Of a stretch of 64,000 nucleotides of DNA, positions 14,671 through 56,143 are shown piece by piece. The DNA lies in NCBI GenBank assembly GCA_016218545.1, contig JACRDQ010000038.1, positions 66,986-130,985 of the forward strand. The letters are read 5' to 3'. This DNA comes from Elusimicrobiota bacterium. Its GTDB lineage: Bacteria > Elusimicrobiota > Elusimicrobia > UBA1565 > UBA9628. The notes under the pieces are model-generated. The model was not told the DNA's origin and searched no databases. It was given only the letters and a program-made list of their open reading frames with translations. The position numbers and the translations under genes were made by a program. Within the stretch, counting starts at the first letter, position 1. The number at the start of each line of letters is the position of its first letter.

Positions 14671-15240
14671 ATGGGACTCTTTGATCTGCTGAAGGGACTG
14701 CTGGGCGGCGGGAGCGACAAGGGCAAGGTCGAGCCCGCCTTCATCCAAGGCGAGAGCGGCCAGGTCATCGTGCACCGGCATTCAGGCTTCCGGTTTCCGC
14801 AGGACGTGAGCGAGTATGTGGGCGTGGGCCCCACCCAATACGACGAGAAGGGCCTCGACGTCTCGGTGGGCTATAACCATGCCAAGCTCATGGGCCTGGC
14901 CGTGACCGTCTATGTCTATCCCGATTCCGGGGGGCCTGGGTCCCTGGCCGGACAGTACGAGGGGTGCAAGGCCGAGGTCAGCGGAGCGCACGCGAGCGTC
15001 AAGGTCCTTTCCGAGGAGGTCCTCTCCGGGGCTCCGAACGGGACCCAGACCGAGGGGCGCAAGGCCTTGTTCTCCTTTGAGGACGAGCTCGGTGGCATCA
15101 ATCTCTCCTCCCTGTCGGAGCTCTGGCTCTTCTCCCACAAAGGCTTCTTCATCAAGTTCCGCGCCAGCTACCCGGATTCGATGAAGCCGCACGCGCCGCA
15201 GGCCGTGGTCGGTCTTATTAAGGAACTTAGTTGGCCCTGA
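14671..15240 (+). CDS. Hypothetical protein, 189 aa
   Basis: ORF with a plausible start and no recognisable motifs. It is convergent with the giant CPBP fusion gene. Moderate GC, about 62%. Confidence 0.35.
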   Translation: MGLFDLLKGLLGGGSDKGKVEPAFIQGESGQVIVHRHSGFRFPQDVSEYVGVGPTQYDEKGLDVSVGYNHAKLMGLAVTVYVYPDSGGPGSLAGQYEGCKAEVSGAHASVKVLSEEVLSGAPNGTQTEGRKALFSFEDELGGINLSSLSELWLFSHKGFFIKFRASYPDSMKPHAPQAVVGLIKELSWP

Positions 15241-15286
15241 GTGCCGTCGCCTATCTGCCGCCAGGGCCCGAGGCTCTCAAGTCCTC

Positions 15287-18200
15287 TTACAGCGGACCAG
15301 CGTCTTCAAAAGTGCCTTTTCGTATTTTGTCTTCCTGATCCAGGTAGTCCAACAAGGTCTTGTGAGTCTCTATCCAAGGATGGGCCACCCGCTGTTCGGA
15401 CAAATCTCTTCTGGCAGCGATGTTCGCGATCGTACTTTTCCGCAATCCAGCCCTGAGCAGGCGGCGTAGGAGTGGAGAGTTGTCGCGACCATGCACGTAT
15501 TCTTTTCTCAGACCCGCGAAGAATGCCTCATCCAAACAGCCGAAGACAGCATCGAAATATGCCTTCTTCAGGCCGCACCGGGCGCTCAAGATTTCCAATT
15601 GATTCCATATGTATTCTTCCGCTTTTTCCAATTCCAGCTGGCTCAGGCTTCCCGCGGCGATGCCTTGCAGGGCGGCATGGAGGGTCTGCTTGGCCTTTCT
15701 TTCCGAAGTCTGCCACTCCACGAGTTGTTGGATATGGCCGCTGATGGTATCGCTACGGAGGATCTGGGTCCGTTTGCGTGCATATTCAGGCAGCGGCTTG
15801 GCGTAAGAAAAAGCCAACGCCACGGTTCGGTCCACCCGCCTTCGATTCACTCCTGCCAGCCGCAGAAGCCCCAGATCGAACTCATGAAATGCGTCGTCCC
15901 CATAGGGGCCGATCTTGCCGCCCTTGACCTCGCCTCCCTGGGTGGCGTAGTGAACCAAAGCCGTGGTCAAGGAATGGGTCAGATAACTCGCCTGATTATT
16001 GTCGTTCTCCGCGCTGCCTCGATAGGCGCTTAGCAGAAGGTCGAACACCGCGGGGATGACGAGGATTTTTGAGCCGACGTTCCAAAACCTGAATCCCGCT
16101 TCTTTCAAGGCCCCAGGCATGATCTGTGGATCCAAGCCCAGGGCCCGCCACAAACGCGCCACATCCCTTTTTGTGAATGAGACTTCTCCTATCTTGCGTC
16201 TTAGGGGAACCATCCCCTTGAGCACCGTGTCCCGGCCGGCATAGGTCAACAGCAACTCCGTGTTCTGCGAAATGATCGCATTCTGATGATTCCACAAGAT
16301 GGCCCGCATGATGGTCGCGGGATCTGCCTGTTCCTGCTGGATCCGATCGTACTGCTCCGTTTGTAGCCAGTATCTGATGCGGATAAGATCCGGGGCGGCC
16401 TGATAGCGGAAGAACATCCCCGGATTGATGTCTCGGATGGAGCGGCTATACAGGTTGCGGGTATAGTCGTCCGCGCGCAGGATTTCGGCCATCGCCTCAT
16501 AGGGCAGGCGGCGGGTCAAGTCTTCGGGGAGGTTGAGATAGAAGTTCAGATGTTCGAAATCCAATTGTTCGTCGTTGGAGGAGATCGCCTTGGCGATAGG
16601 TGAGAGGCCGGCGGGCTGGTTCAGCATCCTGTGAGCTTGGCGGAAATCAGGCATCTGCATCAAGCCCTTGATCACATGATCCGACATGCTGCCGCTGACG
16701 CCCGCAGCCTTCATGGATTTGATCGCCGCACCCAGGAGCCGCGACAAGCCCGCGTGAAACCAGAAATCAGCTCGTTGGTCGGCATCGGGAGCGGCCGAAA
16801 GCATGTCCAAAAGGGAATCGGGGGAATCCCGCGGCAAGCCCGCCTTGAACAAAGAGGGACCTAGCTTGAGGAACGCAGCGACGGCCGTTGGAGGATCGTG
16901 ATGTTTCGCCAAATGAAAGACGAGGTAGATGCCGTCGCCGTACAAGCTGCTCCCCCATCGGGCCTTGGCCGAGATCAGGGTATGAAGGGCTGTGGCGCTG
17001 GCCGCGGCATCAGGACGTCGACTGAGCGAGACCAAGGCATCGGACATATGGGGGTCATGAGAGACTACACTCAAGGAAACCATGAGTTCGCGCAGGGCCG
17101 CAGCGTCAGACTTGGGATCAGGCCCGGCGGCCACGGACGAGAGCATGTCGATCGCGGTTTGTTGCGACACGTCGGTAGCGACCCGATACATGGCCGCTAA
17201 AGGCTCAGCGGCGCCGTCGTGAAGGAGTCGCCTCAAATCGATCTGAGGCTGGCCGGCCAATGCGCGCAGAGCCGCCCCTGTTTGGCCGTTATCGAGGCCG
17301 GCTTGTCTAAGGATGGCGGCGACTTGCCCCACGGCCTGGGTTGGGGCGATGTCGCCCAGAACCAGCGGGGCGCCGCCATCCGTGGGCATCATGTCGTTGA
17401 TTGCGGAATCAAGGAAGCGGCTGCTCGCAGCGTCCTCGTTGCCCGTACGGCGGGATTCCGTGACGCGAGCATCGAGCAGCCGGAGAGAATCTACGGCCAC
17501 AGGCGCGTCCGCAGCTTGCGCTTGCTCAGGCGGGACAACGGCTTGACGTCCGCCGCCAGCGTATGGTCTTAGGAGGGCGTAGAGCGTCAGGCTGAAGGCC
17601 AGCGGCAGGCTGACGGCCATGGCGGCGGGCCAGAGCACCAGGGGGCCGAAGACCAGCCCCGCTGCTGCGAGGAGGGCCCATCCGGACACGGGGTTGGCCG
17701 GCCGTTCCTTGCCGAGCATGCTCCTCAGGGACGCCGCCGCGGCGGCGAGCCCCACCGCGGCGATGCCCAGGGTCGCGGCCCTCCCCGCCGGGGCGAAGAG
17801 CAGGCCCGCCATGGCCATGGCGAACCACATGCCGTTGTAGAAGGCGTGGTGCGTGATGGAGCCCGCCAGCCCGTGCTTCTCGAAGACCCATGAGAGCATC
17901 AGGGAGCCCGCGAGCCTCAGGCCGAAGAGGAGGGGGTCGGAGGTCTCGTGCAGGGCCACGAAAACGAGCGAGCTCGCCAGGGCCGCGACCCCGAAGGCGC
18001 CCCGGCTCCAGAACTTCGAGACGACCTTCTTGAGGCCGCCCTGCAGGAACTGCCGGAACAGGAGCTCCTCGAGGACCGGGGCCATGACCGACACGGAGAA
18101 GAGGAGGCTGGCGATCTCGCTGATTCCCATGCCTGGGCCGAACACCGGGCCCTGGTAGTTCGAATGCGGGACGTAGCCCAGGGCGCCTGCGAGGGCCTTG

Positions 18201-31382: not shown

Positions 31383-31475
31383 GGGGTCAGACCCTGACAT
31401 TGGAAAATCTGACATTGACGTTGGGATGTCGAGCGTGTCCCAATGTCAGATTTTCCAATGTCAGGGTCTGACCCC
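31383..31475. repeat. 93-bp perfect palindrome (35-bp arms, 23-nt spacer) containing four TGACATTG half-sites. It would serve as a terminator for the upstream receiver gene and/or an operator upstream of the PAS-GGDEF gene.
   Basis: Left arm GGGGTCAGACCCTGACATTGGAAAATCTGACATTG (31383-31417) is the exact reverse complement of 31441-31475. Each arm carries a direct repeat CTGACATTG..(N6)..CTGACATTG. Confidence 0.9.
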
Positions 31476-31488
31476 TATCTACGGCGAC

Positions 31489-31872
31489 CTATTTCTTTCG
31501 GTGCTCTTCGAGGGCGAAGATGTGCTCGATCTTCGCCTTGAGGTCCTCGACGCTCACGGGCTTGGCCAGGTAGTCCACCGCGCCGAAGAGGAGCGCGTCG
31601 TTGACCGTGGCCGCGTCGGCCAGGGCGCTGACGATGAGGATGGGGATGTGGCCGGTCTTGGCGTTGGTGCGGATCTCCCGGGTCAGGCTGATGCCGTCCA
31701 CCCCGGGCATCATGACGTCCATGAGGATGAGGTCGGGCAGGTGTTCCGTGAGGCTCGCCCGGGCGGATTCGGCGTCTTCGACGGTGGCGATCTTGTACCC
31801 GAAGATGGGCAGCCCCTGTTCGTAGAAGTCCCGCATGGACGGGTCGTCGTCGATGGCGAGGATCGTCTTCAC
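31489..31872 (-). CDS. Stand-alone CheY-like receiver protein (GTG start)
   Basis: The protein reads VKTILAIDDDPSMRD...LILMDVMMPGVDG...YLAKP. A GGAGGG RBS precedes the GTG at 31872. The longer ORF in the track is an out-of-context extension. Confidence 0.7.
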   Translation of the reverse strand: MKTILAIDDDPSMRDFYEQGLPIFGYKIATVEDAESARASLTEHLPDLILMDVMMPGVDGISLTREIRTNAKTGHIPILIVSALADAATVNDALLFGAVDYLAKPVSVEDLKAKIEHIFALEEHRKK

Positions 31873-32360
31873 GAGCCCTCCGTGATCCAAGAGTCCAGGC
31901 TGAGCGGGGTCCGCGGCCGCAGGAGGAGCCAGAGGCAGCATCCAGCCAGGGCGGCGTCCAGGAAGATGGTCTGGCCGGGGGCCAGGTGCAGGCCAAAGCC
32001 GAAGCAGCCGCAGTCGGCCAGTTCGAAGCCCCGGCTGAAGGTGGAGAGCAGGGCCGTGATGAACGCGCTGAAAAGGGCCAGGCCGGCCGCGGCGGACCAG
32101 CGGGTGAGCCAGCCGAAGACGAGGGCGAAGCCCGCGAGGACCTCGGCCCACGGCAGGAGGGTCGCCAAGGGCGGGACCAGGGCCTGGGGCAGGAGGGCGT
32201 AGGCCTCGATGGCCGCGGCGAACTCCTGCGCAGGGGCCGATGCCTTGGCCGCGCCGGAGAAGGCCAGGGTCGCGCCCACGAGGACCCGGGCAGTCAGGCC
32301 CAGCCAGTCGGTCCAGGGCCGGCCTTGAGGCAGAGGAGGGGGGGAGAGTCTGCGGGTCAT
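31869..32360 (-). CDS. DoxX/MauE-like polytopic membrane protein (probable thiol-oxidoreductase partner of the upstream DsbA-like protein)
   Basis: Begins at internal Met MTRRLSPP. It is about 160 aa with 4 TM helices and a CGCFG motif (ELADCGCFGFG). There is an ATGA overlap with the DsbA-like gene. Confidence 0.5.
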   Translation of the reverse strand: MTRRLSPPPLPQGRPWTDWLGLTARVLVGATLAFSGAAKASAPAQEFAAAIEAYALLPQALVPPLATLLPWAEVLAGFALVFGWLTRWSAAAGLALFSAFITALLSTFSRGFELADCGCFGFGLHLAPGQTIFLDAALAGCCLWLLLRPRTPLSLDSWITEGS

Positions 32361-33004
32361 CGGTCCTTGCGCTTCCTCTCGATCCACATGGAGCCCAGGG
32401 TGGAGAGCTGGCGCGAGCCCACGAAGCGCCTGCCGGCCACGAAGAAGGTCGGAGTGGCGGAGACGTTCCTGGACTTGGCTTCGGCCATGTCCAAGACCAC
32501 GGCCGCGTCCACGGCCGGGTCCTGGATGCAGGCTTCGAAGGTCTTGGCGTCCAGGCTCAGGTCCGCGGCGTACTTGAGGAACCAGGACTTGGGCGGCGCT
32601 CCGTTCCCGCGAGGGACCCATTCACCCTGCCGTTCGAAGAGCCGGTCATGGTACTGCCAGAAGGCGCCTTGGCGGCCGGCGCACTCCGCGGCCGCTGCCG
32701 CGGCCCTGGCCGAGTGGTGCATCCGTTCCAGGGGGAAGTGCTTGAACTGCAGGCGGACGTCCTTGCCGTAGGCGGCAAGCATGGACTTCACGGTCCCGTG
32801 CGCCGCGCTGCAGGCCGGGCACTCGAAATCCGAGAACTCGACGATGAGGATGGAGGCTCCCGGGTCGCCGGTCTGCCTGTAAGGCGGGGGCTCGGAGGAA
32901 GCGGATTTGACGGTCTTGGACGCGGCCAGCACGCAAAGGGCCGAGACGGCCGCGATCGCGGCTCCGCTCAGCAGGGTGCGCCCCTTTCTGGAGGCCGGCA
33001 GCAT
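32357..33004 (-). CDS. DsbA-like thioredoxin-fold thiol:disulfide oxidoreductase (CPAC active site), possibly leaderless
   Basis: Start at Met14 (MLPASRKG...), because the first 13 codons of the track ORF lie inside the 57-bp hairpin at 33035-33091. A signal peptide is present and the active site is FECPACSA. The start codon is immediately preceded by the -10 sequence TTATAAT. Confidence 0.65.
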   Translation of the reverse strand: MLPASRKGRTLLSGAAIAAVSALCVLAASKTVKSASSEPPPYRQTGDPGASILIVEFSDFECPACSAAHGTVKSMLAAYGKDVRLQFKHFPLERMHHSARAAAAAAECAGRQGAFWQYHDRLFERQGEWVPRGNGAPPKSWFLKYAADLSLDAKTFEACIQDPAVDAAVVLDMAEAKSRNVSATPTFFVAGRRFVGSRQLSTLGSMWIERKRKDR

Positions 33005-33010
33005 GCCGCT

Positions 33011-33039
33011 ATTATAACAGTTGATGACGCCGGTGTCAG
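33011..33039 (-). promoter_or_regulatory. Sigma70-like promoter CTGACA-N17-TATAAT (extended TGtTATAAT) placed for a leaderless DsbA-like transcript
   Basis: On the minus strand the sequence reads CCTGACACCGGCGTCATCAACTGTTATAATAGCGGCATG. The -10 ends 6 nt before the ATG. The -35 lies within the right arm of the 57-bp palindrome. Confidence 0.4.
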
Positions 33040-33091
33040 GCATTCGAAAGATCCGAAAACCTTTGGTTTTCGGATCTTTCGAATGCCTGAC
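33035..33091. repeat. 57-bp perfect hairpin (27-bp arms, 3-nt loop). It would serve as a terminator for the subtilisin gene and overlaps the -35 of the DsbA-like promoter.
   Basis: GTCAGGCATTCGAAAGATCCGAAAACC-ttt-GGTTTTCGGATCTTTCGAATGCCTGAC, read directly. It lies immediately downstream, on the minus strand, of the S8 protease stop at 33100. Confidence 0.9.
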
Positions 33092-33099
33092 GCCAGCAA

Positions 33100-34329
33100 T
33101 CAGCGGACCAGCTTGGCCGCGTCCACGAGGCCGGCGCCCTGCTCTTCCGCGGGAACGTCCGGGAAGGGGGTCGCGCCGGCCTTGAACAGGGCTCGGACCT
33201 TCTCCGGCCCGTCTGCGGCCTTGGCAGCCACGGCCAGGGCGGCGAGCCCGGCTGCGTGAGGGCAGGCCATGGAGGTGCCGGAGAGCGACCGGTAGAGCCC
33301 GCCCGGGAAGGTGGATGGGATGGCCACGCCCGGGGCGATGAAGTCGACTTCAGGCCCCCGGCTGGAGAAGTACGCGACCTTGTCTCCCGCGTCCGAGGCC
33401 GCGATGGCGATGGCCTGCGGGTAGGCGGCGGGGTATCCCACCGCTCCCCCGGAGTTCCCGGCCGCGGCCACGAGGATGAGGCCCGCCTTGGCCATGGCTT
33501 CCACCGCCGCCTGGAGCGCCTCGTTGCCCCGGGAGGCGCCGAGGCTCATGTTGACGACCTGCATCTTGTTCGTCACCGTCCATTCCATGCCCGCGATGAC
33601 GTCGCTGAAATTGCCGCTGCCGTCCTTGTCGAGCACCTTGACCCCGTAGAGGGCCGCCTCCGGGGCGACGCCGACCACGCCGGCCGCGTCGTCTCGGGCC
33701 GCGATGGTGCCGGATACGTGGGTGCCGTGTCCGTTGTCGTCCTTGAAGTTCTTCGGGTCCTCCTTGTCGATGGCGCTCCAGCCCCCGGCCACCGCCCCCT
33801 TGAGGTCCGGGTGGTCGAAGTCGATCCCGGTGTCGATGACCGCCACCTTGACGCCCTTGCCCTTGGTGACGGACCAGGAGGCCGGAGCGTTGACGCGGAT
33901 GACGCCCCACGGCGCGTCCTGCCCGGCGGTCGGGGCGGGTGCCGCAGGGGAGGTCTCCAGCCTTCCTTTGAGGAACTCCGTCATGGCCGGCCAGGGGACC
34001 TCGTTGACCGCGGCAGGGGCTCCTTTGAGCCAATCGATGCGCGGGTCGTCCACGACGTTGAGGACGTCGCCCCGGGACTTGAGCCTGGCCTCGGCGGACT
34101 GCAGGAGGCTTGAGCCCGCGCGGATGACCACCGCGTTGATGAGGCGCAACTCCCGCACCACGACCCCTCCTGACTGCGAGGCGATGGCGACGCGCGCGCT
34201 GGGCGCGACGCTCCCCTTGAAGACCACGATGCGCTGGGAGGCCGACCCCATGGCATCGGCGGCGAGAGCGGGTCCGCGGAACCCCATGAAAACGGCTGCG
34301 ACGACGAGCCAGCGTGCGGCTCGTACCAT
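33100..34329 (-). CDS. Secreted subtilisin-like serine protease (peptidase S8) with an N-terminal propeptide
   Basis: The catalytic triad motifs are VAVIDTGID (Asp), HGTHVSGTIAA (His) and GTSMACPHAAGLAAL (Ser). A signal peptide is present (MVRAARWLVVAAVFMGFRGPALA). Confidence 0.9.
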   Translation of the reverse strand: MVRAARWLVVAAVFMGFRGPALAADAMGSASQRIVVFKGSVAPSARVAIASQSGGVVVRELRLINAVVIRAGSSLLQSAEARLKSRGDVLNVVDDPRIDWLKGAPAAVNEVPWPAMTEFLKGRLETSPAAPAPTAGQDAPWGVIRVNAPASWSVTKGKGVKVAVIDTGIDFDHPDLKGAVAGGWSAIDKEDPKNFKDDNGHGTHVSGTIAARDDAAGVVGVAPEAALYGVKVLDKDGSGNFSDVIAGMEWTVTNKMQVVNMSLGASRGNEALQAAVEAMAKAGLILVAAAGNSGGAVGYPAAYPQAIAIAASDAGDKVAYFSSRGPEVDFIAPGVAIPSTFPGGLYRSLSGTSMACPHAAGLAALAVAAKAADGPEKVRALFKAGATPFPDVPAEEQGAGLVDAAKLVR

Positions 34330-37159: not shown

Positions 37160-37229
37160 CTCCGGCGGGAAGGCCGCAAAACGAAAGGCCCCTCCGGGCC
37201 GAGCCCGGAGGGGCCTTCCCGTCCCCGCC

Positions 37230-37576: not shown

Positions 37577-37624
37577 CCAGTATAACAGGGGTTTCTTGAC
37601 TTTTCAAGGGTGAGGGGATACACT
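37577..37624. promoter_or_regulatory. Back-to-back promoter module, copy 1. On the minus strand it gives an extended -10 TGTTATACT for the small gene. On the plus strand it gives TTGACT-N17-TACACT for TPR-STK #1.
   Basis: CCAGTATAACAGG at 37577-37589. TTGACT at 37596-37601 and TACACT at 37619-37624, with an exact 17-nt spacer. ATG at 37641. Near-identical modules occur at 40491-40539 and 42940-42968. Confidence 0.6.
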
Positions 37625-40100: not shown

Positions 40101-40167
40101 CCGGGCTCGAGACAAAGAGGAAGCCCCCGGCGCGAGCCGGGGGCTTCCTCTTCGGCGCGGACCCGGG

Positions 40168-40490: not shown

Positions 40491-40539
40491 CCCAGTATAA
40501 CAGGACCTCCTTGACAAATCAAGGGGGGGGCTGTACACT
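40491..40539. promoter_or_regulatory. Back-to-back promoter module, copy 2 (CCCAGTATAACAGG; TTGACA-N17-TACACT)
   Basis: TTGACA at 40511-40516 and TACACT at 40534-40539. ATG at 40555. The same architecture as copy 1. Confidence 0.6.
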
Positions 40540-45942: not shown

Positions 45943-46293
45943 GGGGGTGAATAGGTTCGACAGCTGCCTCTAGGTCGTTGGCAGCAGGCCCTGGTTGGTC
46001 AGCGCCAGGATAAAAGCCGACCAAAACAACAAAAGCCAACTCACAGTTGGCCTGGGCCACCGCCTAATAAGCGCGTAGCCTACGCCGGTCCCTGACACCT
46101 GCTGGGGGAGCGCCGGCGTCATGAGCAGGCTGGACGGCCGCACCGCGCGTTTCGTCGGGGCGGACGTCGAGAACAAAACGGAACAACTCGGGAGCACCTG
46201 TCCGCCGGTTTTCCCGGGTCGTGCCGGCGGACTAAGCCTGTAGCGGCCGCGGCGGGAGACGGTTGGACTCGAGTGCGATTCTCGACACCTCCA
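45943..46293 (+). ncRNA. ssrA: tmRNA (transfer-messenger RNA, ssrA). Predicted tag ORF GCC AAC TCA CAG TTG GCC TGG GCC ACC GCC TAA TAA (ANSQLAWATA**).
   Basis: The 5' end is GGGGGUGAAUAGGUUCGACAG. The 3' end is GGACUCGAGUGCGAUUCUCGACACCUCCA. The acceptor stem GGGGGUG pairs with CACCUCC and includes a G3:U70 wobble. A 5-bp T-stem (UCGAG/CUCGA) with a 7-nt loop abuts the acceptor strand. The discriminator is A and CCA is not encoded. The A-rich tract ACCAAAACAACAAAA precedes the resume codon, and there is a double stop UAAUAA. Total length is about 351 nt. Confidence 0.85.
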
Positions 46294-46297
46294 AGAT

Positions 46298-46351: not shown

Positions 46352-47668
46352 GTGTTTGACTACCGCTTCGTCACCCTGCTCGGCGCGACCCTGGTCTTCG
46401 CCCCGCTGTCGGTCCTCTTCATCTTCATCTCCGGCATGGGTCCGGGCCTCTTCCCTCTCTACGGGCTCATCTTCCTCTGGTGCGACTACCGCAGGGAGGC
46501 CGAGGCGCACGTCATCTTCCTCTTCATGGTGACCACCGCCGGGGTCGTGCTCGCGGCCTCCGCCGCAGCGCAGCGGAACGTGCTCGGAGCCGAGATCCTC
46601 GGGATGTGGATCCTGGTATGGGCCCTGGGCCTCCATCACCGGCGGGGCGCCGATGTCCTGCACGAGGCCCGGGAGGAGATGGCCAAGCTGGCCGGGTCCC
46701 TGCGGGACGACGAGTCCGAGTTGACGCGACTCAACGCCTATCAGGCGAGCGCCGCGGTCCAGATCGGCCTGCGCCAGGACCTCACCGAGAGCGCGCGCAG
46801 CCTGGGCTCGACGCTCGACGGCCGCGAGGTCCACGTCCGATTGAACGGCATCCTCTGCGCGCGCTTTGCGGGCAGCAGGGTGCGCATCCAGGCCTGGGCT
46901 TCGGGGGACCCCCTGCTCGAGTTGGCGATGAAGGCCGGGACCGTGGCCCTGGTCAAGGACACGGCCACGGACGCGCGCTTTTCCTCGGGCGGGGCGGGCT
47001 TCCGCTCCGGGATGGCGGCCCCGCTGAAGGTCATGCGCCAGTCCGCGGGCTTCGTCAAGGTCGAGTCGGACCAGGCCGGCGCGTTCGGCACGCAGGAGGT
47101 CCAGTCCCTGGACCTCATCACCACCATGGCGTCCCTGAGCCTGGAGAACATCCGGCTCTACGAGACCGTGCAGGAGCAGGCCACGCACGATCCGCTGACC
47201 GGGCTCTTCAGCCACCGGGCCTTCCAGGCCAGGCTGCACGAGGAGCTCCTCCGCGCCGGACGCAGCCAGACCCCGGTGTCCTTCATCCTCTGCGACGTGG
47301 ACCACTTCAAGACCTACAACGACCGCTACGGCCACCAGGCCGGAGACTCCCTGCTCAGGTCCGTGGCGTCCATGCTCGCGTCCTTCGCCCGGCCGGTGGA
47401 CTTCCCGGCCCGCTACGGCGGAGAGGAGTTCTGCCTCGTGCTGCCGAGCGTCCCGCTCGCCGAGGCCCTGGACCTGGCCGAGCGCCTGCGCGCCCGCGTC
47501 GAGGCCGAATCTTTCGTTTTCCAGGGCGTCAAGACCGGGGCCACGATGAGCCTGGGCGTGTCCGCTTTCCCCCAGGACGCCACCACCGCCAGCCAGATCG
47601 TGCGCGTGGCCGATGAGCGGCTCTACCGCGCCAAAGCCGGGGGCCGCAACAGGGTGGCGGGGGTCTGA
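46352..47668 (+). CDS. Membrane GAF-GGDEF diguanylate cyclase #1 (GTG start)
   Basis: It has 3-4 N-terminal TM helices, a GAF-like region and a GGDEF domain with RYGGEEF and DPLTGLFSHRAF. Its stop overlaps the start of the next GGDEF gene. Confidence 0.75.
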   Translation: MFDYRFVTLLGATLVFAPLSVLFIFISGMGPGLFPLYGLIFLWCDYRREAEAHVIFLFMVTTAGVVLAASAAAQRNVLGAEILGMWILVWALGLHHRRGADVLHEAREEMAKLAGSLRDDESELTRLNAYQASAAVQIGLRQDLTESARSLGSTLDGREVHVRLNGILCARFAGSRVRIQAWASGDPLLELAMKAGTVALVKDTATDARFSSGGAGFRSGMAAPLKVMRQSAGFVKVESDQAGAFGTQEVQSLDLITTMASLSLENIRLYETVQEQATHDPLTGLFSHRAFQARLHEELLRAGRSQTPVSFILCDVDHFKTYNDRYGHQAGDSLLRSVASMLASFARPVDFPARYGGEEFCLVLPSVPLAEALDLAERLRARVEAESFVFQGVKTGATMSLGVSAFPQDATTASQIVRVADERLYRAKAGGRNRVAGV

Positions 47669-54991: not shown

Positions 54992-55099
54992 GCCCTATGA
55001 TACCATGAGTCCGCGACGCCCTGCACGACTGACCGCCTCGGGCCCGACATGCGTCGCAGCCGAGTATGACGCACCCTCCGTATTGTTATAATCCGGTCC

Positions 55100-56143
55100 A
55101 TGAAGGCAAGAATCGCTCTCGTCGTGCTCTCCTGCGTCCTGAGCCTCGCGACCGGCTGGGTCCTCAGCCGGGGCGGGACCGCGGAAAGCAAGAGCCCGGG
55201 CCGCAAGGTCCTCATCGGCTTCTCCATGGACACGCTCAAGGAGGAGCGCTGGCAGCACGACCGCGATTACCTGGTCGCCAAGGCCAGGGAGCTCGGGGCC
55301 GACGTCCTGGTGCAGGCCGCCAACTCCGACGACACCCGGCAGATCGCGGACGTCCAGGCCCTGCTCTCGCGCAAGGTCGACGTGCTCATCATCGCCCCGC
55401 ACAACGGCGCGGCCATGGCCAAGGCCGTGGACATGGCCCACGAGGCCGGGGTCCCCGTGATCTCCTACGACCGGCTCATCACGGGGAGCGACCCGGACCT
55501 CTACATCTCCCACGACGCCGTCAAGGTCGGGGCGGAGCAGGCGCGCTTCATCACCGCCAAGGTCAAGCCCGGCCGCCCCATGCGGATCATCCGCATCTTC
55601 GGCGCCAAGACGGACAACAACGCTCACCTCCTCAAGCGCGGGCAGGACGAGGTCCTCGCGCCCTGCCTGGAGAAGGGGAGCGTGAGGATCGTGCACGAGG
55701 ACTGGGCCGAGAACTGGAAGCCCGAGAACGCCAAGAAGATCGTCAACGCGGCCATCACGCGCTTCGGCGGCGGCTTCGACGCCGTGATCGCGGCCAACGA
55801 CGGCACGGCCGGGGGCGCCATCCAAGCCCTGACCGAGGAGGGCCTGGCCGGCAAGGTCATCGTGACCGGCCAGGATGCCGAGCTCTCCGCCTGCCAGCGG
55901 GTGGCGCGGGGCGCACAGGCCATGACCATCTACAAGTCCATCTCGGCCCTGGCCGGCCGCACCGCCCAGACCGCGGTGGCCATGGCGACGGGCAGGCCCG
56001 TCATCGCGGGCGCAAGCGTAGACAACGGCAAGATCCAGGTGCCCGCCGTCCTGCTCGACGTGGTCACGGTCACCAAGGACAACATCGAGGAGACCGTGGT
56101 CAAGGACGGCTTCCACAAGCGCGAAGAGGTCTTCGGCCGCTGA
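55100..56143 (+). CDS. xylF: Sugar (D-xylose-type) ABC transporter substrate-binding protein
   Basis: Signal peptide is present. It has a periplasmic-binding-protein type I fold with XylF-like segments (VDVLIIAPHNGAA, VISYDRLI, DAVIAANDGTAGGAIQAL). Confidence 0.75.
   Translation: MKARIALVVLSCVLSLATGWVLSRGGTAESKSPGRKVLIGFSMDTLKEERWQHDRDYLVAKARELGADVLVQAANSDDTRQIADVQALLSRKVDVLIIAPHNGAAMAKAVDMAHEAGVPVISYDRLITGSDPDLYISHDAVKVGAEQARFITAKVKPGRPMRIIRIFGAKTDNNAHLLKRGQDEVLAPCLEKGSVRIVHEDWAENWKPENAKKIVNAAITRFGGGFDAVIAANDGTAGGAIQALTEEGLAGKVIVTGQDAELSACQRVARGAQAMTIYKSISALAGRTAQTAVAMATGRPVIAGASVDNGKIQVPAVLLDVVTVTKDNIEETVVKDGFHKREEVFGR

Follow-up and report, generated by a model that had tools for sequence, protein, structure and literature searches.

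In Mycobacterium, Streptomyces and Deinococcus, the -10 box of genes with leaderless mRNAs ends some 6-7 nt upstream of the initiation codon. Among dispersed sequences, Correia elements have a terminal -35-like hexamer that can create promoters, and uptake sequences (DUS/USS) are lineage-specific and occur as inverted pairs in terminators. REPINs have conserved ends, diverse hairpin-forming spacers, A/T flanks and centre-excised remnants (PMC3337134), and REP/REPIN elements are mobilised by RAYT transposases (PMC3337134; PMC3116915). REPs are partial terminators and stabilisers of upstream mRNA (bioRxiv 10.64898/2026.03.23.713779), and REPIN-RAYT systems are described as vertically inherited and lineage-specific (bioRxiv 10.1101/2022.05.22.493013). 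The QMITEs of Coxiella are 150-400 bp long and have direct repeats of 7-11 nt (PMC5896051).

Here, we describe a locus of an Elusimicrobiota bacterium (assembly GCA_016218545.1) at which a predicted leaderless promoter adjoins a long hairpin. The DNA analysed, referred to from here on as the window, is the 64,000-nt stretch at positions 66,986-130,985 of the forward strand of contig JACRDQ010000038.1, and coordinates are those of the window.

Results

Layout of the locus

On the minus strand, a gene for a subtilisin-like serine protease is followed by the hairpin and then by a gene for a DsbA/thioredoxin-like protein with a signal/anchor peptide and a CPAC motif (Table 1). Because the start of the next gene, which encodes a MauE/DoxX membrane protein, overlaps the stop codon of the DsbA-like gene (ATGA), we regard the two as one operon. 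An NCBI protein of 215 aa is 100% identical to the DsbA-like product, and its annotated start is the ATG at 33004. Further, an independent Logan assembly (L001) is 100% identical across 1726 nt, the hairpin included. Comparison of related loci showed that the subtilisin gene is syntenic in L002, L003, L004, L165, and L167 and that the pair of DsbA-like and MauE/DoxX genes is also present in L002, L004, L165, and L167.

Table 1. Features of the subtilisin-DsbA intergenic region and flanking genes, in window coordinates
Feature	Position	Strand	Basis or remark
Subtilisin-like serine protease gene (Peptidase_S8)	33100..34329	-	ORF list; Pfam PF00082, E = 9.5e-59
Subtilisin stop codon TGA	33102-33100	-	ORF list
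DsbA/thioredoxin-like gene, 215 aa, start ATG 33004-33002	32357..33004	-	Pfam Thioredoxin_4 7.7e-26, DSBA 1.2e-16
MauE/DoxX membrane protein gene	31869..32360	-	Start overlaps DsbA stop (ATGA)
Perfect palindrome, 57 bp (27-bp stem, 3-nt loop), dispersed-family copy	33035..33091		Sequence, folding, family comparison
Extended hairpin, 33-nt arms (33029-33061 / 33065-33097), 94% complementary	33029..33097		2 nt past subtilisin stop
Family base motif GGTGTCAGGCAT (minus strand ATGCCTGACACC, includes -35-like CTGACA)	33032..33043	+	Family comparison
Second base-motif copy ATGCCTGACGCC, 1 mismatch vs ATGCCTGACACC	33083..33094	+	Sequence
-35-like CTGACA, 5/6 to TTGACA, within right hairpin arm	33034..33039	-	Promoter scan
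Extended -10 TGtTATAAT (hexamer TATAAT 33016-33011)	33011..33019	-	Promoter scan; orthologue comparison
Predicted transcription start, A of ATG, 7th nt past -10	33004	-	Inferred from geometry and N6 conservation

A predicted leaderless promoter of the DsbA-like gene

Reading along the minus strand, CTGACA, a 17-nt spacer, TGtTATAAT and 6 nt (agcggc) precede the ATG of the DsbA-like gene, exactly as the first-pass annotation had described. This arrangement is the top promoter-like match between 30 and 42 kb of the window (11/12 plus TG), an interval that contains 6 promoter-like sites compared with 0.4 expected. Because the -10 box ends 6 nt before the ATG, the transcription start would fall on its A and the mRNA would be leaderless. 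No GGAG, GAGG or AGGA was found within the 18 nt before ATG 33004 (upstream sequence ...caactgttataatagcggcATG), i.e. there is no Shine-Dalgarno (SD) sequence of these forms at the start codon. The TATAAT-N6-ATG arrangement is kept at L002, L003 and L168, the proteins of which are 71%, 69% and 58% identical to the DsbA-like product, with the extended -10 reading TGTTATAAT in L002 and TGTATAAT in both L003 and L168. Among the matches listed from a contig scan with the DsbA alignment, which were mostly distant loci of other phyla, L005, L006, L007, and L014 were extra Elusimicrobia loci; L007 has TATGAT-N6-ATG, L014 has TACACT-N7-GTG, and the spacing is N9 in L005 and also in L004. In the N-terminal alignment, the homologues are 206-222 aa long and begin with MLPxx, MLPAS... 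being kept.

The same layout recurs beyond the DsbA-like gene. The neighbouring PAS-GGDEF gene has TA..CT-N6-ATG in four lineages, and the distance from TANNNT to start codons in the window peaks at 6 nt, with 6 cases. In 259 kb of pooled DNA from related Elusimicrobia, TANNNT-N6-start occurred 32 times against a background of 5.05 (P about 1e-15), the lineage-wide peak lies at N6/N7, and leaderless-type genes coexist with SD-led ones. Our literature search returned no report of leaderless transcription in Elusimicrobia. Overall, we conclude that the DsbA-like mRNA is very probably leaderless and made from an extended -10 promoter, as had been proposed before, a view supported by the N6 spacing and MLPAS... 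N terminus of the orthologues, the NCBI start, the lack of an SD sequence and the lineage-wide layout; a predicted leaderless layout is common in this high-GC Elusimicrobia lineage. At L165 and L166, the DsbA gene lies 30 nt past the subtilisin gene and has no -10 box, which suggests that the two genes are co-transcribed in some lineages.

We note that TGTTATAMT occurs four times in the window, compared with 0.01 expected, at 33011(-), 37579(-), 40494(-) and 55084(+), and that all four sites precede genes encoding hydrophobic signal-like N termini. The first-pass annotation had already recorded the word for the secreted-protein genes at 37580 and 40494 but overlooked the site at 55084, and it had suggested that secretory genes of the minus strand have a promoter class in common. 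A single divergent promoter module, present in paralogous copies beside TPR-kinase paralogues of 54% identity, accounts for the sites at 37579 and 40494, and the claim of a shared class is therefore unsupported; further, the site at 55084 has plus-strand orientation, and TGnTATAAT is the general sigma-70 extended -10 consensus.

The hairpin beside the promoter

The 57-bp perfect hairpin with its 27-bp stem, first picked out in that annotation, is present as described. Its minus strand (33091..33035) reads GTCAGGCATTCGAAAGATCCGAAAACC-AAA-GGTTTTCGGATCTTTCGAATGCCTGAC, its centre is AT-rich (AAAACCAAAGGTTTT), its stem has a GC content of 48%, and the perfect stem begins 8 nt past the subtilisin TGA. 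The region folds with -69.2 kcal/mol as RNA (z = -11.9; 0 of 200 shuffles as stable) and with -37.2 kcal/mol as DNA (z = -11.6), and both folds include the outer 5-bp helix of the extended hairpin. No U-rich tract lies directly past the stem, which is followed by ACCGGCGUCAUCAAC, and the terminator scan did not list the hairpin; canonical hairpin+T terminators are found elsewhere in the window, at 37185-37217 and 40115-40152. Because it has no U-tract after the stem, the hairpin is not a canonical intrinsic terminator. As to the earlier proposal that transcription of the subtilisin gene ends at the hairpin, the location right behind the stop codon fits and the U-tract is missing in the window copy; we consider a terminator role plausible. 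The hairpin arm has no further occurrence within the window, which holds one copy of the family described below. As a separate observation, a second long palindrome is present at 31383-31475; it has no relatives among the fetched loci and, as we presume, resembles Tn3-family inverted repeats.

A dispersed family of hairpin repeats

Metagenome contigs were scanned with the pattern GTCAGGCATN{25,55}ATGCCTGACACC, which imposes only 9 bp of pairing, and this yielded 71 loci. Of the 67 unique matches, 35 form a stem that runs for 20 bp or more without a gap. The conserved base is a 12-bp motif, GGTGTCAGGCAT / ATGCCTGACACC, whereas stem positions 13-28 vary (entropy 1.3-1.8 bits) and are nonetheless paired in 84-100% of cases, and the loops vary freely. 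The elements measure about 55-78 bp and are essentially all stem. Among the hosts are Elusimicrobia, Planctomycetaceae and a gammaproteobacterium of Legionellales-like affinity, and the 12-bp base is identical in all of them; within one metagenome the inner stem can be common to many intergenic copies (11 Ga0255338 contigs, 9 SDBS01 contigs). By sequence comparison, the 57-bp hairpin belongs to a widespread intergenic hairpin-repeat family that extends over at least three bacterial phyla, a membership that the first-pass annotation had missed.

The copies lie close to gene ends: the median distance from the facing stop codon is 6 nt, the distance is 25 nt or less in 24 of 29 copies, and convergent gene pairs share a single hairpin. 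In low-GC hosts, 11 of 14 copies have an A/T tract on at least one side and 10 of 14 are followed by a T-tract, taken as 4 or more T within 8 nt; in high-GC hosts, just 7 of 21 copies are accompanied by A or T tracts. In L003, T5 lies downstream of the copy, and L115 has a minimal 11-bp version followed by T4 after dnaJ. With regard to orthologous sites, the window and L003 are both filled, and their inner stems are entirely different and perfectly paired in each. L002 has a 10/12 remnant of the motif at this site and a decayed copy at another site, absent from the window, and at the orthologous site of L004 and L167 there is a GC hairpin+T terminator of the ordinary kind. L115 and L169 differ in filled or empty state at three sites, and a nested family copy exists. 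The 12-mer is found almost exclusively in pairs and rarely singly or in coding DNA; the exact solo half-sites among the fetched loci (L109 1390, L159 5630) are half elements and not IS ends, and the window holds no other pair of 12-mers with up to 2 mismatches.

We looked for signs of a mobilising system and of known relatives. About 60 copies were inspected, and no consistent direct repeat indicative of target-site duplication was seen at their flanks, which are often themselves inverted (A-tract/T-tract). An all-against-all BLAST of the ORFs in the 71 loci revealed no recurrent partner protein beside the hairpins, only housekeeping genes, and no transposase was among the 25 most frequent Pfam families of the 141 neighbouring proteins. 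Rfam 15 gave only sub-threshold matches of the family to generic miRNA hairpin models (the sole Rfam match in the window is tmRNA), and a literature search with the motif strings returned unrelated primers only. A phage origin was rejected, as the 9 IMG/VR matches to an 18-nt pattern included none with inner pairing. An adapter or assembly artefact was likewise rejected, given copies in independent assemblies, sensible intergenic positions and contigs with housekeeping genes; we know of no sequencing adapter that the family motif matches.

The -35 hexamer within the hairpin

The -35 hexamer does lie inside the right arm, as had been pointed out; the idea that this overlap is a designed feature was not supported by comparison. 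The L002 locus has neither the hairpin nor the -35, and the distance from CTGACA to the -10 box is 25 nt in L003 and 34 nt in L168. Further, -10 boxes at 16-18 nt from 127 family hairpin ends were not enriched (2 matches per spacer length), and this flat distribution rules out a portable -35 as a general property of the family. The location of the -35 within the hairpin looks incidental, CTGACA being part of the 12-bp base of the family; local selection could also explain why a near-ideal -35 stands exactly 17 bp away.

Discussion

Interpretation of the locus

We propose, with a probability of about 0.62, that the locus consists of two separate adjoining things, a leaderless extended -10 promoter and, beside it, a hairpin of a dispersed family. 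The DsbA-like/MauE operon would have its own promoter of the sigma-70 extended -10 type (TGtTATAAT), from which transcription would begin on the A of the start codon to give a leaderless mRNA. As RNA, the window hairpin would most likely be the 3'-end stem-loop of the subtilisin transcript, where it could serve as a barrier to 3' exonucleases and as a partial, non-canonical terminator or insulator. The CTGACA, which is 17 bp from the -10 in this genome, may strengthen the promoter without being a conserved part of it.

The hairpin could instead be a purely selfish or neutral MITE- or REPIN-like insertion that has no host function and is tolerated in the intergenic spacer, which we regard as possible, if unlikely. 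Variation in presence, absence and decay among close relatives, the nested copy, and the occurrence of many copies within genomes and over phyla speak for such an origin. The perfect pairing retained in the window and L003 despite a full change of inner sequence speaks against it, as do the tight placement behind stop codons, the single hairpin shared by convergent genes and the A/T tracts of copies in low-GC hosts, which give them the form of bidirectional terminators.

A more elaborate scenario, which we offer only as a long shot, is that the hairpins are undescribed small elements or 3'-end modules, the base of which is bound by a transposase-like enzyme that crosses phyla or by a conserved host factor. 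Their arms would be kept complementary by arm-to-arm correction as the sequence drifts, and the window copy would have been co-opted into a leaderless promoter, to which its outward-facing CTGACA would supply the -35 and for which it might also be a cruciform switch.

We consider it improbable that the DsbA-like gene lacks an internal promoter and is read through from the protease gene, with the hairpin serving in processing or stability between the cistrons and with translation from ATG 33043 (228 aa) or internally from 33004. The automatic caller picked the 228-aa ORF on the Logan contig, at L165/L166 only 30 nt and no -10 box separate the two genes, and the lack of a U-tract makes read-through likely. 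However, ATG 33043 falls within the perfect stem, none of the homologues (MLP..., 206-222 aa) has the 13 additional residues, and a consensus extended -10 is found at exactly N6 in four lineages.

An equally doubtful account treats the hairpin as a dedicated subtilisin terminator built to carry the -35 of dsbA, and TGTTATA(A/C)T as a promoter class for minus-strand secretory genes. The near-ideal CTGACA-N17-TGtTATAAT geometry and the signal-like products behind all four TGTTATAMT sites would agree with it. It is opposed by the lack of conservation of the -35 in orthologues, the absence of -10 enrichment at the 127 hairpin ends and the window hairpin having no U-tract and, for the promoter class, by the duplicate origin of two of the four sites, the plus-strand position of one and the generic nature of the word.

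Least probable of all, in our judgement, is action at the DNA level, in which a cruciform formed under negative supercoiling or a protein on the base hides or exposes the -35, so that the dsbA promoter would respond to supercoiling or to the bound protein: the perfect palindrome with its AT-rich centre and DNA hairpin of -37 kcal/mol per strand, the -35 within one arm and the cross-phylum conservation of the base, suggestive of protein recognition, count in its favour, but the -35 overlap is unique to the window copy, most copies are at gene 3' ends remote from promoters, and extended -10 promoters depend little on a -35.

Significance

The promoter part of the locus is ordinary, and its value lies in the comparative evidence that high-GC Elusimicrobia may use leaderless mRNAs widely. 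This matters for the calling of gene starts in uncultured genomes, because the automatic caller made the DsbA-like gene 13 codons longer, with its start within the hairpin. The repeat family is the more interesting result: it consists of tiny, almost all-stem repeats just past stop codons without a known partner enzyme. Mobility of the family would point to a mobilising enzyme not yet recognised or to exchange between phyla, and use by the host as a 3'-end module would point to a sequence-specific factor that acts on hairpins of the terminator type. Either way, terminators, promoters and gene starts can be misannotated in metagenome-assembled genomes that contain such repeats.

Comparison with known systems

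The predicted promoter has its closest counterpart in the leaderless mRNAs of Actinobacteria and Deinococcus-Thermus, where TANNNT likewise lies 6 nt before the ATG of many genes that have no Shine-Dalgarno sequence and are mixed with SD-led ones. Here, the phylum is Elusimicrobia, and the start position is predicted from sequence.

The hairpin can be set beside four classes. DNA uptake sequences likewise form hairpins downstream of genes as inverted 12-mer pairs, but the 12-mer of this family is almost never single. We rejected an uptake sequence for the window, in which GTCAGGCAT was counted 12 times when up to 1 mismatch was allowed, compared with 12.6 expected, and is matched exactly by the two arms alone. 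Intrinsic bidirectional terminators likewise place a hairpin just past the stop codon, and A- and T-tracts flank the low-GC members of the family; however, the window copy has no U-tract, its stem is far longer and less GC-rich than those of the canonical terminators in the window, and ordinary terminators do not have a 12-bp sequence common to several phyla.

The architecture of the family resembles that of REPIN/REP or MITE elements. The MITEs, such as Correia of Neisseria and QMITE1/2 of Coxiella, likewise have terminal inverted repeats whose outermost parts are conserved and an outward-facing -35-like hexamer at the element end, would form a long hairpin RNA if transcribed and are polymorphic in presence between relatives. 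The elements described here are much smaller, show no consistent target-site direct repeats at the flanks inspected and are not known to have a related autonomous IS. They differ from REP/REPIN elements in that the 12-mer GGTGTCAGGCAT is not self-complementary and has no GTAG head, in that no RAYT recurred among the 141 proteins neighbouring family hairpins, and in that the base is common to three phyla. In other respects they resemble REP/REPIN elements, which are likewise intergenic hairpins, multi-copy as this family is in related genomes, with conserved ends and a diverse middle that still pairs, with variable spacing, A/T runs on some flanks and centre-deleted remnants, with orthologous sites kept between relatives, and with placement in 3' UTRs, where roles as terminators or stabilisers have been proposed.

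The hairpin and promoter-like sequence before the DsbA-like gene

Read on the minus strand, the spacer from the subtilisin stop codon to the DsbA-like start is TGA ttgctggc GTCAGGCATTCGAAAGATCCGAAAACC AAA GGTTTTCGGATCTTTCGAATGCCTGAC accggcgtcatcaacTGtTATAATagcggcATG. The inverted-repeat finder returned arms of 33 nt that are 94% complementary, with a core consisting of a perfect 27-bp stem and a 3-nt loop, and folding of the region gave -69.2 kcal/mol (z = -11.9) as RNA and -37.2 kcal/mol (z = -11.6) as DNA. A promoter scan of 30-42 kb detected six sites compared with 0.4 expected, the top one being CTGACA-17-TATAAT with TG (11/12 matches). The hairpin, the CTGACA-N17-TATAAT promoter, and the distances between them are thus all present as the first-pass annotation described them, and the region is identical in an independent Logan assembly. 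The gene upstream encodes a Peptidase_S8 subtilase and the gene downstream a Thioredoxin_4/DSBA protein, followed by a MauE/DoxX gene whose ATG overlaps the DsbA stop; other Elusimicrobia MAGs keep the gene order (223-aa protein, subtilase, DsbA, MauE, response regulator, and PAS-GGDEF).

Table. Positions of the features discussed, in the window and in comparison loci
Feature	Sequence	Position	Strand	Detail
Subtilisin stop TGA	window	33102-33100	minus	from sequence
DsbA-like start ATG	window	33004-33002	minus	from sequence
Second long perfect palindrome	window	31383-31475		35-nt arms (GGGGTCAGACCCTGACATTGGAAAATCTGACATTG), 23-nt center; two direct CTGACATTG repeats per arm; between response-regulator and PAS-GGDEF genes
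Canonical terminators with T-runs	window	37185-37217, 40115-40152
Divergent promoter module with TGTTATACT	window	37579-37624	minus-strand site 37579	beside TPR/Ser-Thr-kinase gene
Divergent promoter module with TGTTATACT	window	40494-40539	minus-strand site 40494	beside TPR/Ser-Thr-kinase gene
TGTTATAAT-N7-ATG	window	55084-55102	plus	before 347-aa protein with N-terminal signal or anchor; no recognizable -35
Starts with TANNNT 5-8 nt upstream, no SD	window	2802(+), 14493(-), 22526(-), 31303(-), 46352(+), 54991(-), 62127(+)		proteins of 1039 and 1201 aa among the products
tmRNA gene (Rfam RF00023, 109 bits)	window	45943-46294	plus	then TACAAT-N8-GTG at 46352
Lower G+C	window	15001-17000		0.57-0.58 vs ~0.68 elsewhere in window
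Heptamer subfamily	L094, L126, L143, L164	11890-11990, 1250-1350, 3390-3480, 200-430 (in order)
Ga0163144 copies	L120, L109	8139-8228, 2515-2600 (in order)
Family hairpin	L160	2345-2422		subtilase gene at 999-2279
Three family sites	L115	690-840, 4224-4251, 5762-5823
Three family sites	L169	6775-7005, 10208-10345, 11830-11996
Site after grpE, before dnaK	L115, L169			L115 nested, outer hairpin wraps inner; L169 inner hairpin alone
Site after dnaJ	L115, L169			L115 11-bp minimal stem + T4; L169 long stem
Site before ftsH	L115, L169			L115 perfect 28-bp stem; L169 decayed right arm alone
Unrelated GC-rich long hairpin (GTCATCCCGCGGCTTGATCGCGGGATC...) + T-tract	L169	8920-9030		between dnaK and dnaJ; absent from L115

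The window contains another long perfect palindrome (31383-31475) that may resemble Tn3-family terminal repeats. It is missing from the same site of L002 (an orthologous DsbA locus), where only GGCCTGACCCCAT, resembling its right end, is seen, and no relatives of it were found among the comparison loci.

The hairpin belongs to a family found in three phyla

Because the hairpin at the same place in the orthologous locus L003 is followed by T5 and shares the outer stem (GGTGTCAGGCAT...ATGCCTGACACC) but differs wholly in its inner stem, metagenome contigs were scanned with the pattern GTCAGGCATN{25,55}ATGCCTGACACC, which itself forces just nine paired positions. The scan gave 71 loci, most of which match on both strands, and thus the hairpin ends are fully symmetric. 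In 35 of the 67 unique matches, the ungapped stem reaches 20 bp or more; stem positions 13-28 showed an entropy of 1.3-1.8 bits and 4-5 pair types each and were 84-100% paired, and the loops have no fixed length (3-20 nt) or sequence. As the control, we searched viral contigs with an 18-nt version of the pattern, and none of the nine matches displayed inner pairing. Copies from one metagenome have a common inner stem (TCCGCTTTTTTCACTTT in 11 Ga0255338 contigs, AACCATACCAACCTTTCT in SDBS01 contigs, and GCCGATCGGACAGTA in Ga0163144 contigs), and the differences between copies are compensatory. In one subfamily, the arms and flanks are tandem (GGYRTCA)n, with GGYRTCA on one side and CCTGACA on the other; about two heptamers of this kind make up the conserved 12-mer. 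In the Ga0163144 copies of L120 and L109, ACTGTCC/GGACAGT appears four times with its orientation alternating: two occurrences are in the flanks and two in the inner stem, so that alternative pairings would be possible.

The Ga0255338 contigs have ~70% DNA identity to window genes and therefore come from Elusimicrobia relatives. DnaK on the SDBS01 contigs is closest to Legionellales-like Gammaproteobacteria, and the permease of L126, the only heptamer-subfamily member with a taxon, matches a Planctomycetaceae entry at 100% identity. With genes called by a crude ORF/GC3 caller, on which these position counts rest, the copies are intergenic, between 32 co-directional, 11 convergent, and 7 divergent gene pairs, and the distance from the facing stop codon to the hairpin in 35 clean copies has a median of 6 nt (≤25 nt in 24/29). 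A- or T-tracts flank 11/14 copies in low-GC hosts and 7/21 in high-GC hosts. In the Elusimicrobia locus L160, a family hairpin with another inner stem lies ~65 nt past a subtilase gene that is one of two tandem copies; the context downstream differs and has no DsbA. No Rfam family matches the hairpin, and a literature search with the family motif strings returned nothing relevant. We conclude that the window hairpin, the notable part of this locus, is a copy of an apparently undescribed family of hairpin repeats that are very small, lie close to stop codons, and span phyla, and whose conserved 12-bp base has no known reader.

Hairpin sites are old and their sequences turn over

Among syntenic Elusimicrobia DsbA loci, the site is filled in the window and L003, with different inner stems; L168 has the end of a family copy (CCCTGACACC), L002 only a 10/12 remnant (AAGCCTGGCACC), and L004 and L167 show terminators of the ordinary GC-rich hairpin+T type. 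Elsewhere, L002 carries a decayed copy that separates TATAAT from ATG at the 223-aa gene, a site at which the window lacks a copy. Two gammaproteobacterial loci, L115 and L169, whose DnaK proteins are 92% identical, share three intergenic sites where family hairpins occur in differing states (see table), and the inner hairpin of the nested L115 pair is orthologous to the single L169 hairpin. From the same sites in different states, we therefore read that the sites are old and the sequences turn over. The unrelated dnaK-dnaJ hairpin of L169, which L115 lacks, suggests that the lineage has another family of hairpin repeats.

The DsbA-like mRNA is probably leaderless, as is common in the lineage

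A 215-aa NCBI protein annotated from an Elusimicrobia MAG is 100% identical to the window DsbA, and the NCBI pipeline therefore uses ATG 33004. The Logan-contig gene caller chose the in-frame ATG 33043, inside the hairpin; this alternative start is disfavored by the NCBI model and by the DsbA homologues, which have 206-222 aa and several of which begin MLPxx. No SD-like word occurs within 18 nt of the DsbA ATG in the window. The pre-start sequence is TGTTATAAT-atgccc-ATG in L002 (71% protein identity), TGTATAAT-atcgcg-ATG in L003 (69%), TGTATAAT-atcgcc-ATG in L168 (58%), and TATGAT-N6-ATG in L007 (39%). It is TACACT-N7-GTG in L014, TATAAT-N9-ATG in L004, and TATCGT-N9-ATG in L005; L167 gives no clear -10 reading, and L165/L166, in which the DsbA gene lies just 30 nt past the protease gene, have no -10. 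The neighboring PAS-GGDEF gene follows the same pattern, with TAAACT-N6-ATG (window, L002) or TATCCT-N6-ATG (L004, L165).

TANNNT boxes were tallied according to how far they lie from an ATG or GTG at the start of a long, high-GC3 ORF. The distance peaks at 6 nt in the window (6 vs ~1.3); with 195 kb from related Elusimicrobia added, the 6-nt bin held 32 boxes and the 7-nt bin 16 (background, 5.05/bin; P ~1e-15). GGAGG-type SDs precede many other window genes, and thus the genome mixes leaderless and SD modes. The absence of an SD, the N6 spacing in orthologues, and the 6-nt peak support the leaderless DsbA-like mRNA proposed earlier, and a leaderless dsbA-mauE mRNA, with a TSS position that we infer, is the best reading of the sequence. 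This layout is an instance of a lineage-wide habit, ordinary for the lineage and not peculiar to dsbA. Our literature search found no report of leaderless transcription in Elusimicrobia; the sole relevant paper mentioning both puts SD usage in the class at ~46%. The plus-strand site 55084 is a second strong leaderless candidate. Among the other starts in the table, 62127(+) belongs to a response regulator gene with TTGACG-N18-TATACT-N6-ATG.

The -35 spacing and the extended -10 word

A -35-like CTGACA 17 bp from the -10 was seen in the window only: the L002 DsbA promoter has nothing -35-like, and the distance from CTGACA to the -10 is 25 nt in L003 and 34 nt in L168. The -35 that had been placed inside the hairpin arm is thus present in the window and is not kept there in these three orthologues, and a test for a general role of family hairpins as a "portable -35" was negative. 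The exact spacing is most plausibly a local coincidence, which may still raise promoter strength.

Four TGTTATAMT sites lie in the window, against an expectation of 0.01. The search recovered the sites 37579 and 40494, on which a shared promoter class for minus-strand secretory genes had been based, and the extra site 55084. The divergent promoter regions at 37579 and 40494 align over ~40 nt (AGTGTA...CCCTTGAnnnGTCAAG...CCTGTTATACTGG), and each back-to-back module sits between a small secreted-protein gene, with a 20-35-nt leader and GGAGG, and a TPR/Ser-Thr-kinase gene. The kinase pair is paralogous (54% identity), and the small proteins are unrelated to one another. The two sites are one module duplicated and, therefore, not independent evidence; with the fourth site on the plus strand, the class is not supported. 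The word is no more than the sigma-70 extended -10 consensus, conspicuous in a 68% GC genome.

Role of the hairpin and comparison with known repeats

The window hairpin begins 2-8 nt past the subtilase stop codon, and no U-tract follows it. From its position and by analogy, it is most likely a 3'-end stem-loop that would limit read-through and protect the upstream subtilase transcript, with the downstream dsbA operon expressed from its own promoter. A role at the DNA level, e.g. cruciform extrusion hiding the -35, seems unlikely. As a comparison for the stem-loop role, E. coli REPs are reported to act as partial terminators and stabilizers of upstream mRNA (bioRxiv 10.64898/2026.03.23.713779).

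REPINs combine conserved ends with spacers that are each different but still form hairpins, and they show A/T flanks and palindromic remnants once the center is excised; the dynamics of the hairpin family are close to those described (PMC3337134). However, the family 12-mer is not a small palindrome and lacks GTAG, the proteins neighboring the family hairpins include neither a recurrent RAYT nor any other recurrent transposase, and no target duplication is visible at their flanks. Further, REPIN-RAYT systems are described as vertically inherited (bioRxiv 10.1101/2022.05.22.493013), whereas the family base is identical in three phyla. We therefore describe the hairpin family as resembling REPINs or MITEs in both behavior and construction and do not assign it to either group.
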